From the IMG/VR virus record IMGVR_UViG_3300030330_004861, positions 1-39,080 of that record: a stretch of 39,080 nt of DNA. One strand, written 5' to 3'. Source of the DNA: a virus (lineage: Duplodnaviria > Caudoviricetes). The position numbers and the translations under genes were made by a program. Below the pieces are notes generated by a model. It saw only the letters and a list, made by a program, of their open reading frames with translations. It had not been told where the DNA came from and did not search any database. Below, piece after piece: positions 3,449 through 14,193 of the stretch; the first letter of the stretch is position 1, and each line of letters opens with the position of its first letter.

Positions 3449-3578
3449 CGCTAAATTTCTCCATGGTTTTGCGATTGATGCGAGATGTAACGAAAGCTAT
3501 TGCGCCGAATATCACGAATCCCGTCCACGCGATAATCAGGTAATCGACGGCAAAGCCGGTAAGGGCGTCATACTCCAT
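3438..3578 (-). CDS. 46-aa putative single-pass membrane protein (MEYDALTGFAVDYLIIAW...)
   Basis: Read by hand; TAATG coupling; hydrophobic segment. Confidence 0.5.
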   Translation of the reverse strand: MEYDALTGFAVDYLIIAWTGFVIFGAIAFVTSRINRKTMEKFSDEN

Positions 3579-3772: not shown

Positions 3773-4277
3773 GCCTTAGTTCCTCCGTAAGGTTGTTGGA
3801 CTCGTCTGTTATATGGGATCGTATCGGACATATCAACCCCATAATTTCGTCCCAGTTATAGGGCGCTTCGACAAAGAGATCGGGCGGGCAGTCGGTGCCT
3901 TCCATTCGAACGTCGATAGCCTTGGAGGCGTGGTAGACTCGGACGGTGTCGGTCTGCTTCGCTTTCGACTGGCGGACCAGTATCCACGCGCTGCCGTTTT
4001 TGTGGAGGTCCATCCACGTCACCTGATGCGGCGATAGCTCTATCGCCTTGCCGCCCGTGTGCTTCAATTCAACAAAATGAAAGAGGCCTAGTTCGTCTTG
4101 GATTACAACGTCAGGAACCCCCGGCGTCGCCCACGTCTCCAGCCTCGTCATCGTCAGCTTGCGGCGGCTCTGCGATATCCCCTCCTTCATCGTCTTCCAC
4201 AAGCCGCTTTCGCGCTTTGCGGCGGTTCGAGGTATTGTCCGGCTCTTCGGGAGTGATGTCGATAGTGATCGGGGCAT
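3762..4277 (-). CDS. VRR-NUC-like PD-(D/E)xK nuclease (possible Holliday junction resolvase)
   Basis: ESGLW...PGVPD...FVELK...LSPHQVTW motifs; start uncertain, overlaps terS. Confidence 0.75.
   Translation of the reverse strand: MPRSLSTSLPKSRTIPRTAAKRESGLWKTMKEGISQSRRKLTMTRLETWATPGVPDVVIQDELGLFHFVELKHTGGKAIELSPHQVTWMDLHKNGSAWILVRQSKAKQTDTVRVYHASKAIDVRMEGTDCPPDLFVEAPYNWDEIMGLICPIRSHITDESNNLTEELRHGV
3808..3836 (-). promoter_or_regulatory. Sigma70-like promoter inside the 3' end of the nuclease gene
   Basis: TTGATA-N17-TATAAC with TCCCATA motif overlapping -10. Confidence 0.65.
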
Positions 4278-5370: not shown

Positions 5371-5914
5371 CCAACCTGTTAAGAGACCCGTGGGCCGTGA
5401 TTAAGGGTTAGTGGTCGTTCAGTTCGTCTACGAGTTCACGCAGGTCGCTTTCTGCCTTTTCTTTTTCTGCGCTCTCGTTCTTTTCTATCCAGTACTCGAC
5501 ATTCTCTTTGATGTCGTTAAATGTCTGGTCCATCCATTCTTCATGGTCTGGGTGGTCCGGATTCATGTCGCCTTTTTTCATCGGCCTGATGGTCCGGCCT
5601 TTGCAGAAGAACAACCCTATCGGGGTTGGCCTGTCTTCCGGGGTGGCTTCGTAGTGGAAGCCGCCAAGCTCGCCGCAGTTGAGCGTTTCGCTTGGGCCGT
5701 ACATTACCCTGACGGCGATGCCGTCTTTCTTCCCAAGGGTATTGGCACCGTATTCTTTTACTGCGTTTTTGATGGCAGTTACGGGGTCAAGGGCCTTGGC
5801 CCACCCTCCGTAGTAGCCGCCCGAGAGGGCGAGGAAGGTGTATCCGTTTTTGAGTGTATGATCTGTCATTTGGTTCTCCATGGTTCGAGGCCCACGGGTC
5901 ACTCAACAGGTTGG
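5371..5914. repeat. 26-bp imperfect inverted repeat enclosing gene 5408-5869
   Basis: 5371-5396 vs 5889-5914; 2 mismatches. Confidence 0.85.
5408..5869 (-). CDS. Hypothetical protein
   Basis: Start MTDHTL at 5869 after RBS CCATGGAGAA. Confidence 0.75.
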   Translation of the reverse strand: MTDHTLKNGYTFLALSGGYYGGWAKALDPVTAIKNAVKEYGANTLGKKDGIAVRVMYGPSETLNCGELGGFHYEATPEDRPTPIGLFFCKGRTIRPMKKGDMNPDHPDHEEWMDQTFNDIKENVEYWIEKNESAEKEKAESDLRELVDELNDH

Positions 5915-6096: not shown

Positions 6097-6630
6097 TTAC
6101 GTTTTATCCCACTTGTCTGCGGCAGTCAGCATCGCCCAGTTAAAAGCCAGCGTGATGCGTTCTCCGGGCGCGGCATCAACCGAGTGAGGGAGCGAGGCCG
6201 GGAATGTAAGAACGTGGCCCCGGGCGTTATAGAAGACGGTGCCGCCGACGATAATTTCGGAGTCGCCGAAATAGACGACGGACGCGTAATCTGTTCCCCC
6301 CGAAACGTGAGCGTGTTCTTCGACGTTCTCGCCGGGCTTCAGAAGGTTGCCCCAAGCGTCCAGAATGTCGATACCACTGAAGGCCCTTTCGTTAAGGGCC
6401 CCGGATTCCCGCAGCCGCTCGCCCAGCATATGGACGTACTCGTGAAAGATTTCGTCGTCGTTGAATTGCCGCCAGTCGGTCATCTGACCGTGGACGTTCG
6501 TGACGTAGTCGTTTGGGCCGACGGTCTCGCGGATCTTTCTCTCGAAATGCTGGAGGTGCGCCTCGGATAGAACCTTACACCGAACTACTCGGGTCGGGGC
6601 CAGTATCCAATGCGTCTCGACAAGTTCCAT
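6097..6630 (-). CDS. 2OG-Fe(II) oxygenase (TIGR02466-like)
   Basis: WGN..PG..HAH, SVVY, FPASLPHSV, RITLAFN. Confidence 0.85.
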   Translation of the reverse strand: MELVETHWILAPTRVVRCKVLSEAHLQHFERKIRETVGPNDYVTNVHGQMTDWRQFNDDEIFHEYVHMLGERLRESGALNERAFSGIDILDAWGNLLKPGENVEEHAHVSGGTDYASVVYFGDSEIIVGGTVFYNARGHVLTFPASLPHSVDAAPGERITLAFNWAMLTAADKWDKT

Positions 6631-6833: not shown

Positions 6834-7547
6834 CTATTGATCCCGAAAATCGCTGAGCCAGAACAACCGGCCATCTTCCGCGAGACGCCCCATTTCGTCC
6901 TCTCGCGCCTCTTGGGCGGAAAGGTTGCGGTCGAACTCGGAAGCGACCTCGTACTCTTTCTTGTGGCACGGAGCGCAGATGAACTCCGGATATTTCCCGT
7001 CAGGGCCCGGATTTTCGAGTTCTGCCCGCTCCTGCTTTGAAGGAGCCTTTCCGCAATGAGAGCAGACAAGGTCAATTTGCGCGGGGTTGCCGCTCATACG
7101 AGCCGACTCGCGCAAATCGTCCTGAACTTCCTGCGATGCCAAAAACCGGTCAAGCTTTTGCATCTCGGTCAGCGAAGAAAAGACGTGCCGGAAGCCCGCG
7201 TTGTCGCTGACTTCTAGCAGCGAGCTAAACGGCACCCGGATACGTTCGGGTCCGCCCGCGAAGGAGAGCGAAACCTCGAAGGCCTCGTGCCATACCTCCA
7301 GACCCCAGAAAGCATTCTGAAGAACGATGGTTAGCTCGTCCGGACTAGCCTCGAACAGGTGTTCGGGCATCTTCACTCCGCGTTCGCGGGTGTCGAACCG
7401 AAAGTAGATCCCCGTCTCGCCTATCTCGGGAATGCTGCCTATCTCTTGATAGGCCTGAAGGATGTCACGAAGCTCATTTCGTACGGCTTCGTCCATACGT
7501 TCGGCCAGAGTCAGGGACTCGTTGTCGTTATTCAAAAGCATGGTCAT
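6834..7547 (-). CDS. sspB: SspB (alphaproteobacterial-type ClpXP adaptor)-like protein with C4 zinc finger
   Basis: YFRFDT..GVKMPEHL...PDELTIVLQNAFWGLEV...FEVSLSFAGGPERIRVPF matches the SspB-alpha pattern; C-terminal CSHCGK..GP..ICAPC. Confidence 0.8.
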   Translation of the reverse strand: MTMLLNNDNESLTLAERMDEAVRNELRDILQAYQEIGSIPEIGETGIYFRFDTRERGVKMPEHLFEASPDELTIVLQNAFWGLEVWHEAFEVSLSFAGGPERIRVPFSSLLEVSDNAGFRHVFSSLTEMQKLDRFLASQEVQDDLRESARMSGNPAQIDLVCSHCGKAPSKQERAELENPGPDGKYPEFICAPCHKKEYEVASEFDRNLSAQEAREDEMGRLAEDGRLFWLSDFRDQ

Positions 7548-8403: not shown

Positions 8404-8432
8404 AAAAACCTCCGTGGTGTTGGGGTAAAAAC

Positions 8433-8995: not shown

Positions 8996-9068
8996 CGGTC
9001 CTCCCGTGGGTTGTTGAATGGGACGCCGCCTTTAGCAGTTGGGGGATCTAGTCGTCAACAAAAAACGA

Positions 9069-9584
9069 CTACATCGGAATCCAGTTAAAATTAATAACGC
9101 GACGGAAAGGCACGTCAGTCGCGCCCCAAGACCCGTGGCGCGTGGACGCCGGGAACTGAACGAAGCGGTTTGCGACCGCGTCCACTTTCTCGCCGCTCTC
9201 GAACTCCGTCGGGCCATTACAGGTGTCGAGGTAAAGGATGCCCGTTCGGCAAATGTCTTCTCGGTCCGTGTCGATATGAAAACCACCGAAGAACGGTTCG
9301 GGCCCGGAATACAAAAGAAGGTTCGCCTTTATTCGGATCAGGATGAAGGCGTTCAGATTTCGAATCACGGGGTCTAGTACGGACGAAAAGTCCGACATCC
9401 ACTCGCCCCGTAGGTAGAAGACGTGGCTATGCTGCATGTTTTGAAGATGCGTGTCGAAGCCGATCTCGTTAATGTTACTGAGGTGATAGACCCACGGAAA
9501 GTTTTCTCCGGGTTTTGTAGGGCCGTTCAGTATTTCAAAGTCCTCCGGACTCAGAAAGTCGTCCGTTACCTCAAGCTTCGTCAC
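9069..9584 (-). CDS. 2OG-Fe(II) oxygenase-like protein
   Basis: RIKANL, FHID, ILYL..CNG.T.F, NRFVQF..RHG, RRVINFNW. Confidence 0.8.
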   Translation of the reverse strand: MTKLEVTDDFLSPEDFEILNGPTKPGENFPWVYHLSNINEIGFDTHLQNMQHSHVFYLRGEWMSDFSSVLDPVIRNLNAFILIRIKANLLLYSGPEPFFGGFHIDTDREDICRTGILYLDTCNGPTEFESGEKVDAVANRFVQFPASTRHGSWGATDVPFRRVINFNWIPM

Positions 9585-10374
9585 TTCTCTGCACCTGATC
9601 CTCGGTAAACAGGGCGATGTTTCCCGATATTGACCTGCGGTCGGCCTCTTCCTGCCGGTCAGAGTTCAGGCTCGCTCTAAAAGGGTAGACCATGTGGTTT
9701 AACCAGTGAGGAAATATCACGAAGCGCCCCGGCTGGGGGTCCATGGACATTACCTTGGAGGTTCGGAACTCCGAGTGCGCTGTCTGGAGGGTCGGCCCGT
9801 TGACGAACGTAATGCACCCGTCAAGCTGCCCGGAGGAGCTTTTTAAAGTTGGCGCTTCGGTGTTTCGCATATTCTCGGGCACCCGAGTCCAGAAGACAAA
9901 GCTCAAGCCTGCCGCGGTGCGCTTACCGTGATCGTGAATCGGGTTGTAGTCGCCCGGCAGGCTATCAACCACCCAAGCTTCGTAGCAATTAGCGGCGACG
10001 TAGGGCGGGTTGGGGTCATCTTGCATCGCGTAAAACCGCTGGACGTACTGCATAGCCATGCTCTCGGCGATGCCGTAGATTCCGTGGAAGGGGTCGCACC
10101 ATTCCTTGTCGAGATAAAGCTGTTCGCCGTTGTGGATTTGACCCACAAGCTGGTCCGAATAGTCTTTCTGCTTTTGAGCCTCTTTTAGCTCATCGATTTC
10201 GTGGTTAACGCCTCTGTAGAACCAGAGAGGCAGCGTCGTTTCAAGAATCACAAAGTCCGTCACGAAGTGCGTTTTGATGTCGGCGTTAAAAGTTCCTTTG
10301 TAGTCTCTCTGCGGCTGCCCTAAGTCGCGCACCGCGCCGCCCGTCTCTCTCGAAAAAACCTGCGCTTTATCCAC
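9571..10374 (-). CDS. 2OG-Fe(II) oxygenase (TIGR02466-like)
   Basis: YNPIHDH, DGCITF, IFPHWLNHMVYPF, RRSISGN. Confidence 0.85.
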   Translation of the reverse strand: MDKAQVFSRETGGAVRDLGQPQRDYKGTFNADIKTHFVTDFVILETTLPLWFYRGVNHEIDELKEAQKQKDYSDQLVGQIHNGEQLYLDKEWCDPFHGIYGIAESMAMQYVQRFYAMQDDPNPPYVAANCYEAWVVDSLPGDYNPIHDHGKRTAAGLSFVFWTRVPENMRNTEAPTLKSSSGQLDGCITFVNGPTLQTAHSEFRTSKVMSMDPQPGRFVIFPHWLNHMVYPFRASLNSDRQEEADRRSISGNIALFTEDQVQRSDEA

Positions 10375-11273: not shown

Positions 11274-11481
11274 GTGGTATCTCCATAATAAACTCTGCGT
11301 CCGGGTATTCGTCTCGCACCTCGTCCACGGTTTCGTAAACCGTCTCGTAAAACATCTGCTGCCCTTCGCCGTAGCAGAAGGGGCACGGTCTGGCGATATC
11401 TAAAGTTTCGCTGGCTCTTCGAACAAGCTGACCATACCCCTCGCACTCGCGGCAGGGCAGCGTCACTTCGAACGTAGGCAT
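11248..11481 (-). CDS. Small protein with DnaJ-type CxxCxGxG zinc motifs
   Basis: CRECEGYG and CPFCYGEG. Confidence 0.7.
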   Translation of the reverse strand: MPTFEVTLPCRECEGYGQLVRRASETLDIARPCPFCYGEGQQMFYETVYETVDEVRDEYPDAEFIMEIPHEDAHHGN

Positions 11482-11546: not shown

Positions 11547-12659
11547 CTATTTAAATGCAGGCCCGGTCACCCACCCCACGAGCGAGTGTCTGGTTCCTTT
11601 GGTTACGGGGGTTACTTCGTGTAGTGCGTAGCTTGGAAAGAACGTGATAGCGCCTTGGTCGCGGTCCGCGGGCTTTGAGTCGCTGTCGAGATGAACGATC
11701 AGGTCACCGCCCTCGTACGAGTCCGGCGGAGATAGCTGAACACTGAAACTTAACTTACGGTGGTCCAGCGTCTCGTTGTCAGGCACCCCTGCATCGACGT
11801 GCCTTCCGTAAAAGCCCTTGTCGCCGTTCTTATATGTTCCGAACTGAAGGTTCTGGATGCTTCTAAGGTCGAACTGGAACCCGCTTTCGTTAGCAGCCAC
11901 TACCTCACCGCAAAGCGTTTCAAATATCCAGCGGTTCTCAGGTACGTCGGAGTAAAGAAATTGAACGTCGGTCACGCGTACCTCGTCATTAACAACTCCG
12001 GATCCAACCTCCGCTGGTTTTTTCTCAGAAGCGCGGCCCTTCTGTTCTCGACATGCCGACACTATCTCAGCGCACTGACTGACGCTGAACACGCCCCGCT
12101 TATGAAAGGTTTGAAAGTTGGGGATTTGGTACAGGCCCCACTGAAACGTGTGAGGCTTTTCAACAGGAGGCGGTGCCTCTACGGCCTTTCCTTCTTCGAA
12201 GTATACTCTCCATTCGATATGCCATGTTTGCTCAAAAGGCTCTCTTTCGAAAACAACATCCTCGTCATAAAAAACGGCGACGCCCGGGCGCATGTTTATT
12301 TCTTTGCCTTCGGCGGTCGTAAGCCCCCAGTCCTTCCATACGCCCTCGCAGTATGAAGACAGACAAAGCTTTAACCAGTACCTTCGAGAGGTCGCCTTGG
12401 GTGCTTTTTCACGAATACCTCCCGAATCGGGGGGTTTTATCAAAACGCATTCTTGTGAGGTAACGACGAGGCTTTTTCCGATGGAGTCTCCCAGCTTTTT
12501 TGCAGCCTGCTCCGCGTAGGCTTGCAGTATGGACATTCTGCGCTGCCGCTTTGGCTCAATAGAGCCGCCAGATCCCACGACAAAAAGGGCCTTAACGATT
12601 TCTCCCCGCTCATCGCTGGAGATAAAGTCGTTCATTTCAATCAAAAGGGGTTCGCTCAT
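11547..12659 (-). CDS. PKHD-type 2OG-Fe(II) oxygenase with an extra N-terminal domain
   Basis: HVD, RKLSFSVQLS..YEGGDL, FPSYALHEVTPVTKGTRHSLVGW. Confidence 0.9.
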   Translation of the reverse strand: MSEPLLIEMNDFISSDERGEIVKALFVVGSGGSIEPKRQRRMSILQAYAEQAAKKLGDSIGKSLVVTSQECVLIKPPDSGGIREKAPKATSRRYWLKLCLSSYCEGVWKDWGLTTAEGKEINMRPGVAVFYDEDVVFEREPFEQTWHIEWRVYFEEGKAVEAPPPVEKPHTFQWGLYQIPNFQTFHKRGVFSVSQCAEIVSACREQKGRASEKKPAEVGSGVVNDEVRVTDVQFLYSDVPENRWIFETLCGEVVAANESGFQFDLRSIQNLQFGTYKNGDKGFYGRHVDAGVPDNETLDHRKLSFSVQLSPPDSYEGGDLIVHLDSDSKPADRDQGAITFFPSYALHEVTPVTKGTRHSLVGWVTGPAFK

Positions 12660-12838: not shown

Positions 12839-13020
12839 CCTCTTTGCACCCGCTTCCATGCGGCACGAAGAGCCTCGGCCTTCAAAAAACCTTCGGGGTC
12901 TTTTAGGCCCCCACTTTCCTGCAAGCGCTCGGCTTCCATCCGTACGGCCTTATCCACCCACTTCACCGCTTGAGCCCAGTTCTGGACCTCTTCGACGGCG
13001 TTAATATACTTGCTTTCCAT
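12835..13020 (-). CDS. Hypothetical protein
   Basis: AAGGAG RBS; first gene after a promoter. Confidence 0.65.
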   Translation of the reverse strand: MESKYINAVEEVQNWAQAVKWVDKAVRMEAERLQESGGLKDPEGFLKAEALRAAWKRVQRG

Positions 13021-13047
13021 GGTCATCTCCTTGGTTAAAGACAGCCC

Positions 13048-13077: not shown

Positions 13078-13156
13078 AAAAAAAACGCCCCCGCACTGAT
13101 GGGTAAGTGCGAGGGCGTTTTACAACCACGGAGAAAACCGGTTCACGCATGAACCG
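13078..13156 (-). ncRNA. Candidate trans-acting anti-RBS small RNA (~80 nt)
   Basis: Own promoter; 5' hairpin CGGTTCA-TGCG-TGAACCG; unpaired GTTTTCTCCGTGGTTGT; terminator hairpin with T8; no ORF. Confidence 0.7.
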
Positions 13157-13162
13157 ATAGAA

Positions 13163-13191
13163 AACCTATGCGATACGCTTCGCTAGGTCAA
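13163..13191 (-). promoter_or_regulatory. Promoter of the candidate sRNA
   Basis: TTGACC-N17-TAGGTT with TCGCATA overlapping -10. Confidence 0.65.
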
Positions 13192-13759: not shown

Positions 13760-13893
13760 TACCGGCCTTGACCCCGGTACTTCTTGAAGCCGAGGCGCTT
13801 GTGCTTGTTCTTGGGCCGCGACAGGTGGCTAGAACCTATCGACGTGCGCTTTTTAATCGGCTTCTCGCGAAACTGAGCAACTACCTTAGCCAT
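13759..13893 (-). CDS. 44-aa very basic protein ending KKYRGQGR
   Basis: Read by hand; TAATG coupling to the hydrolase gene; YRGQG terminus recalled from other small phage proteins. Confidence 0.65.
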   Translation of the reverse strand: MAKVVAQFREKPIKKRTSIGSSHLSRPKNKHKRLGFKKYRGQGR

Positions 13894-14080
13894 CGGCGGA
13901 GTCGGTCGATAGAGTTACCTTCGAGGCTTCAATCGGATGGCTCTGACGAAAAACCTCAGATTCGGCAATGTGGATCTGAAGCATGCCGCTGATGCTGCGC
14001 CCCTCTTTCTGAGAGCGCTGCTTTACCTCGTGGTATGTCTGGATTGGCACCAAAATGCTTTTCCACTTGGTTGTGTCCAT
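13886..14080 (-). CDS. Putative ribbon-helix-helix (Arc/CopG-like) regulator
   Basis: MDTTKWKSILVP..TY.EVK..S.KEGRSISGML; AAGGAG RBS before ATG 14080. Confidence 0.65.
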   Translation of the reverse strand: MDTTKWKSILVPIQTYHEVKQRSQKEGRSISGMLQIHIAESEVFRQSHPIEASKVTLSTDSADG

Positions 14081-14137: not shown

Positions 14138-14162
14138 AAAAAACCCCGCCCGAAGGCGGGGT
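14138..14162 (-). terminator. Intrinsic terminator after polA
   Basis: ACCCCGCC-TTCG-GGCGGGGT-TTTTT. Confidence 0.88.
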
Positions 14163-14193
14163 AAGTTCAGGGAGGTAATTGCGGAGGAGAACA

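Follow-up and report, generated by a model that had tools for sequence, protein, structure and literature searches.

A predicted small RNA complementary to the extended ribosome-binding sites of accessory genes in HTVC023P-type marine phages

Small RNAs such as GcvB, RyhB, and the anti-Shine-Dalgarno (anti-SD) RNAs cuckoo/CcsR use one unpaired seed to reach many ribosome-binding sites (RBSs) and end in an intrinsic terminator. They are host regulators with conserved seeds, and the cuckoo/CcsR RNAs carry repeated hairpins with CCUCCUCCC loops. In phage T4, early translation is shut off at the RBS by RegB and RegA, which are proteins. The CI RNA of P4 is grouped with the C4 RNA of P1/P7, being likewise a phage RNA of ~80 nt that acts in trans by occluding an RBS. 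C4, whose specificity comes from flanking bases, folds into three stem-loops, is processed by RNase P out of a longer precursor, uses its loops for pairing, and serves lysogeny through one operon; it prevents superinfection, and a 4-nt change in the target loop has been discussed as setting specificity (PMC5320573). Other phage antisense RNAs, i.e., Sar of P22, OOP and aQ of lambda, and those of PAK_P4, lower the expression of their own phage's genes by base pairing, but each is described with one target gene and none reads a tag shared by a gene set; phage RNAs described in the same article have single phage targets or host targets (PMC12197685). A shared tag is found in cluster K mycobacteriophages, where the start-associated sequence (SAS), a 13-nt extended RBS, precedes non-structural genes only, in many cases with an inverted repeat in front of it, and occurs in one reversed copy per K1 genome that is not tied to a start (PMC3203893). 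Its role was still unexplained in a 2024 paper (PMC11373665).

The window analyzed here, a 39,080-nt stretch of DNA, is a virus record (IMGVR_UViG_3300030330_004861) at 67% completeness with genes for a primase, a UvrD-like helicase, PolA, TerS, 2OG-Fe(II) oxygenases, and virion proteins. The best cultured matches of its PolA are DSL-LC04 (56%), HTVC023P (53%), and HTVC027P (47%), the next standing at 39%, and the gene order (primase-helicase-PolA, TerS) is that of the HTVC023P-type group. According to this relationship and gene order, the window phage is an uncultured member of that very abundant marine group. A host look-up through 11 MAG contigs returned scattered labels and no usable host. 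The genes discussed below as targets are placed between PolA and the broken end of the record and are mostly small unknown genes, together with DUF932, DUF3924, and PD-(D/E)XK nuclease genes. When ten window accessory proteins were compared with the cultured relatives by tblastn, matches were obtained in DSL-LC04 only. In HTVC027P, gp35, gp36, and gp38 occupy the same TerS-TerL interval and are classed Early (PMC12753301); since they are positional equivalents of the window accessory genes and not homologues, the latter can be called early only as a probable assignment.

A compact non-coding unit is predicted on the minus strand at 13191-13078. It comprises a sigma-70-like promoter at 13191-13163 (TTGACC-17-TAGGTT, with boxes at 13191-13186 and 13168-13163), a 7-bp 5′ hairpin at 13156-13139, a seed of 17 bases at 13138-13122 (unpaired probability 0.95) that is the complement of an extended RBS, ACCACGGAGAAAA, and an intrinsic terminator at 13121-13078, whose stem begins at 13117 and whose U8 tail is encoded by eight T ending at 13078. 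All four elements had been claimed in a first-pass annotation made from the letters alone, and all four were recovered in place on the minus strand. With a predicted start near 13156, the RNA would be 79 nt long. The fold of the 81-nt strand has an energy of -36.8 kcal/mol (z -4.9), which none of 200 shuffles equaled, and the terminator was at the top of the terminator scan list. The promoter is weak, matching the consensus at 8 of 12 positions; it fell under the threshold of the promoter scan and was thus unlisted. Its -10 box is overlapped by a TCGCATA heptamer at 13173 (minus strand). Directly behind the terminator, a further promoter at 13076-13048 (TTGACG-17-TATAAG, with TATGGGA in the spacer) would serve a 61-aa gene starting at 13020, and its TTGAC, TATG.GA, and TATAAG elements are invariant in 8/8 aligned loci. 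As far as sequence prediction goes, such a stand-alone non-coding unit with promoter-like boxes and an intrinsic terminator corresponds to a trans-encoded small RNA. Contigs from four sequencing runs were short pieces of relatives, of a kind that shows neither RNA ends nor strand. The first-pass annotation had also allowed that the plus-strand copy of the motif might simply be the RBS of a real plus-strand gene, yet no start codon lies 3 to 14 nt past the core. A 274-aa plus-strand ORF at 13168, whose start is ~30 nt past the motif and which runs antisense over the hydrolase gene, was rejected as such a gene. At 14162-14193 on the minus strand, the PolA 3′ untranslated region (UTR) contains a second anti-SD tract (CUCCUCC and ACCUCCC) ahead of the PolA terminator, and CCTCC is present in the PolA 3′ UTR of 37 of 67 distinct related loci.

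We then compared this anatomy with that of the described RNAs. No Rfam model matched the window at its gathering score, and the ten weak matches obtained at E values up to 10 were all below cut-offs; the C4 model was neither among them nor found at its gathering score. The window RNA consists of two hairpins and a linear seed rather than the three stem-loops (with loops a′ and b′) of C4, and it differs further in that a promoter and a terminator of its own are predicted, that its targets, about eight, are dispersed, and that it belongs to a group described as lytic. The precedent of P1 C4 and P4 CI put forward in the first-pass annotation thus stands in part: with no Rfam match and a differing anatomy, these RNAs are functional analogues only, and the window RNA is not a member of the C4 family. 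Nor does it fit the description of cuckoo/CcsR, as its seed is single and linear and no Rfam match was obtained.

To score targets, an 11-mer was anchored on the Shine-Dalgarno sequence with G-U pairs allowed, and a start was counted as a target when 10 or 11 of 11 positions paired. By this SD-anchored test, 8/28 accessory starts in the window were targets, compared with 0/13 other starts; one probably spurious 35-aa start was dropped, and the accessory count becomes 9/29 if it is kept. When all 16,384 11-mers having a GGAG core were scored in this way, the mean was 0.08 and only the seed complement reached eight, which makes it the single best. CACGGAG alone was modestly enriched in the window (11 occurrences versus 4.9 expected; 2/100 shuffles). 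The eight targets named in the first-pass annotation were all present, seven of them pairing at 10 or 11 of 11 positions. These seven sites, on the minus strand, lie at 600-612 (152-aa gene, ATG 594), 1856-1867 (DUF932 gene, ATG 1848), 2984-2996 (58-aa gene, ATG 2978; 13 contiguous pairs), 3455-3467 (87-aa gene, ATG 3448; one G-U), 3773-3795 (64-aa gene, ATG 3772; three G-U), 5873-5884 (153-aa gene, ATG 5869; one G-U), and 8409-8418 (69-aa DUF3924 gene, ATG 8403). For the 153-aa gene, the RBSs of orthologues track their own seeds. The eighth is a bulged site at 8996-9016 of the minus strand (PD-(D/E)XK nuclease gene, PF24579, ATG 8995) that pairs at 9/11 with a duplex energy of -27 kcal/mol. 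Additional candidates on the same strand are the RBS of a 59-aa gene at 11277-11292 (ATG 11273; 10/11 paired, three G-U) and that of the adjacent 61-aa gene at 13023-13035 (ATG 13020; 9/11 with one central mismatch, -21 kcal/mol), and the start at 3578 is a further one (9/11). The accessory region also holds an SspB-family gene (PF04386) and three 2OG-Fe(II) oxygenase genes (6834-7547, 6097-6630, 9571-10374, and 11547-12659), none of which has a 10/11 tag match. The earlier remark that the motif is absent ahead of replication and structural genes agrees with the SD-anchored count but not with a bulged seed match (-22 kcal/mol) at the helicase start, 17884, which the simple gene caller had missed and which was hence outside the test. 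The helicase was rejected as a conserved target, strong pairing being found in just 3/18 other loci.

Related loci carrying PolA, TerS, and the ribbon-helix-helix (RHH) gene described below were fetched (239 sequences, merged to 231), with genes called by a simple script and units chosen by eye. Downstream of the RHH gene, relatives show the same promoter-hairpin-seed-terminator anatomy, although their sequences and seeds differ. An automatic count recovered an anti-SD tract together with a terminator at this site for no fewer than 50 of the 79 distinct loci, and for 31 of these promoter boxes as well; known members such as L003 and L256 escaped it, and G003-like genomes seem to be without a seed. 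Conservation of the unit in related genomes, proposed earlier as a check, was thereby observed. Promoter-like boxes preceded 26/33 hand-picked family units versus 53/366 control terminators, and the window seed ranked first among 594 non-coding segments adjacent to terminators, pairing with 22/51 of its own start regions. In the closest relatives the 5′ hairpin is present at the same place with an unrelated sequence. Eight units with seeds of type G showed two-sided changes at 8 of 22 predicted pairs; five type-A copies showed no two-sided stem change, and their 12-nt seed core is invariant. In 4/33 units, part of the seed enters predicted base pairs (unpaired probability 0.19-0.40). A scan of viral contigs for the exact seed gave 95 loci, almost all of them ordinary RBSs or coding sequence of unrelated origin; L140 was the only near-identical genome.

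Seeds and tags were found to change together from one lineage to another, as in the window (ACCACGGAG), L003 (ACAATGGAG), L063 (ACTACGGAG), L013 (ACTACGGGAG), G002 (CACAAGGAGTC), and L035 (TACATGGAG). On a quick PolA tree these seed types, about ten in number and each with RBSs to match, are scattered, and seed and tag alike distinguish the sister groups A and B. Covariation of this sort, which had been suggested as a check, was quantified by crossing 30 seeds with 30 sets of accessory starts (30 of 42 located units, each with at least 11 starts; the seeds are distinct except for one duplicate pair, and two poorly fitting units are included). Pairing was favored within the same genome, with a residual of -3.7 kcal/mol (null standard deviation 0.4; 0/20,000 permutations), and when the test was collapsed to 12 seed types the residual was -3.0 (0/100,000 permutations). 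In 21/28 genomes the real seed ranked within the top 1.5% of the possible 11-mers, its fit was weak in three (L006, L188, and L030), and an SD-anchored target was absent in four (L232, L268, L058, and L257). In L006 and L188, several RBSs resemble the type of the window and not their own seed. Among orthologous genes, the RBS paired better with its own seed in 13/18 families (p 0.002; because the genomes are related, p values given here overstate independence). Shared ancestry would inflate such values, yet it should not by itself keep two distant loci complementary. An unpaired seed that is complementary to several start regions and covaries with them is what a trans-encoded small RNA predicts. 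On these comparisons, the feature is real and lineage wide, and the support for RNA-RNA pairing is strong.

A second, protein layer may act at the promoters of the same genes. The first-pass annotation had seen neither a repressor nor an integrase; none of 48 window proteins of the 67% complete record matched an integrase, in agreement with it, but a candidate repressor is encoded at 13886-14080 on the minus strand. This 64-aa Arc/CopG-like protein matched RHH_5 in 16/16 aligned homologues (E up to 0.05, best 4.5e-8), a PDB sequence search placed the Arc repressor on top (E 2.9e-4), and its N-terminal strand is invariant. In HTVC027P its weak homologue (E 0.023) is gp21, classed Middle (PMC12753301). 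The window has 11 sites (647, 657, 1910, 3013, 3818, 6054, 8449, 9871, 13063, 13173, and 20890) for a heptamer, TATG[GC]GA read in either orientation, and 10 of them are in the accessory region. The heptamer was found upstream of 49/81 targets versus 72/412 non-targets. The protein and the heptamer may form a repressor-operator pair at the accessory promoters.

Given the complementarity and the joint change of seed and RBSs in relatives, one RNA likely shuts off a whole set of genes. We consider it probable that the unit encodes an antisense RNA acting in trans, by which translation of the phage's accessory, presumably early, regulon is blocked, and the analysis supports the silencer interpretation offered in the first-pass annotation. 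The RNA would be made by the host sigma-70 polymerase, possibly also as the 3′ end of an upstream RHH-hydrolase transcript, and would accumulate as infection passes from the early to the middle phase, protected by its hairpin and terminator. Its seed would pair with the phage-specific extended RBS common to the accessory genes, and the resulting duplex of 10 to 13 bp over the Shine-Dalgarno sequence would keep the 30S subunit off. Binding of the RHH protein to the heptamer at the promoters of the same genes could then give a two-layer shut-off of the early program. In contrast to GcvB, RyhB, and cuckoo, the phage seed and its private RBS tag turn over together between lineages, and, unlike RegB and RegA of T4, the candidate regulator is an RNA. 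The tag would also single out, from the unknown genes, the members of the early host-takeover set. Our literature search, which covered little of the subscription literature, yielded no paper on such an RNA in the HTVC023P-type group or on a self-regulon RNA of this kind, nor did it yield the Hfq status of SAR11. In the main text of PMC9599517, neither "small RNA" nor "noncoding" occurs.

The same pairing, taken as real, could serve another purpose. It could be directed mainly against a second, related phage that enters the same cell and whose early genes it would silence, in superinfection exclusion or a dormant carrier state; the seed types would then be specificity groups. This bolder reading, compatible with self-regulation and different from it in purpose only, seems unlikely to us. 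It would fit the spread of about ten seed types over the PolA tree and the difference between sister groups, and joint change of many RBSs should come about more easily under conflict than by drift. C4 of P1/P7 offers a precedent in that it prevents superinfection and a 4-nt loop change has been discussed for its specificity (PMC5320573). On the other hand, one type (UUCCCGUAG) is common to distant branches, HTVC027P is described as lytic (PMC12753301), and the window proteins, from an incomplete record, lack an integrase match. A broader idea, that early genes carry private SD-extension tags read by one small RNA, with lock-and-key groups deciding which co-infecting relatives are silenced, would also explain the K1 SAS; we regard it as speculative and of low probability.

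Silencing by antisense pairing also has to be weighed against an account without any RNA-RNA pairing, in which the motif acts as a DNA tag or as a tag bound by a protein, or was copied along with promoter-RBS cassettes, the reversed copy being just another instance. Targets do stand behind similar heptamer-bearing promoters, so that copying of a cassette could homogenize their RBSs. Moreover, several tags contain ANGGA, which we take to resemble a CsrA/RsmA site, but type-G tags are without it. The mismatches themselves speak for RNA: they lean to G-U, as the first-pass annotation had pointed out, with G-U-compatible transitions at 71/593 sites against 12/226 for the A-C type (p 0.004, for targets chosen by identity only). 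The comparison of C-to-T with T-to-C alone gave 29/199 versus 9/124, G sites being constrained by the Shine-Dalgarno sequence. In addition, type-G seeds keep UUCCCG opposite CGGGAG, with U facing a target G, so that seed and target depart from each other at one and the same wobble position. In many lineages a promoter and a terminator flank the reversed copy, no opposite-strand ORF follows the window copy, and an ORF longer than 33 aa was found in only 1 of 37 core-bearing units (L307). Equal frequency of the tag at all genes would have counted against the silencer, but in six genomes it preceded 29/135 accessory starts versus 2/182 other starts (p 5e-10). An energy-only version of this comparison, superseded by the SD-anchored test, was significant in just 2/8 genomes. 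Outside the family, the seed-terminator pattern was examined at 18 unrelated loci; none had an SD-anchored trans target within the fetched DNA, and in three of them the pattern was simply the RBS of an opposite-strand gene, as the cassette account would have it; hits beyond these 18 were mostly near-duplicates, and on the strength of the 18 we claim no generality of that pattern beyond the family. Taken together, we find a binding tag or cassette improbable. Among unrelated phages, L361, L371, L378, L379, and L381 carry promoter-hairpin-CUCC-terminator units that no start region of the fetched DNA matches.

A general anti-SD molecule aimed mainly at host mRNAs, with the phage matches secondary, is the least credible account and highly improbable, for although every seed has a UCC anti-SD core and 37/67 loci have another C-rich tract in the PolA 3′ UTR, the bases flanking the seed core follow, in each lineage, the RBSs of the phage itself.

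The cultured relatives were inspected by eye for anti-RBS tracts, which is weaker evidence than the tests above. HTVC023P has, behind gp20 at ~6814-6909 of L331 (minus strand; about 10,908-10,813 of MN698239), a hairpin, GCCUUUUUUGUUAGUU, and a terminator; this unit matches four start regions with energies of -15 to -19 kcal/mol, its seed lies partly inside a stem, and no promoter was identified. In DSL-LC04, UUCCUGUAUG precedes a terminator within a 3′ UTR (L332, 32660-32710), opposite the phage's own CAUACAGGAG sites, and HTVC027P has just a 9-nt match behind gp39 (L333, 15270). The antisense reading offers a concrete mechanism, an RNA that reads a private RBS tag, and a cultured phage, HTVC023P, carries a similar unit.

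The RNA-tag design also suggests a direct test for the mycobacteriophage SAS, which closely resemble the target side of the window, share no sequence relationship with it, and have no RNA partner in the accounts given of them (PMC3203893, PMC11373665). A search of the literature for support of a non-coding RNA in Adephagia found none, and a reversed SAS was not found in the right arms of Pixie or TM4. In Anaya (L396:29871) and CrimD (L399:28836), the single reversed SAS sits in the loop of a predicted intergenic hairpin and not in a linear seed, a parallel that we treat as a lead only.

Some variation in the family units was also noted. Extra seed-like copies occur in the 3′ UTRs of accessory genes (L030:16602-16660 and L243, ~13500), and the seed is doubled in tandem in the L300 and L307 units. 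The terminator loops of the family are often C-rich (CCCAUC, UGCCCCC, and UUCCUCCC), others not, and the C-rich ones may offer a second pairing site.
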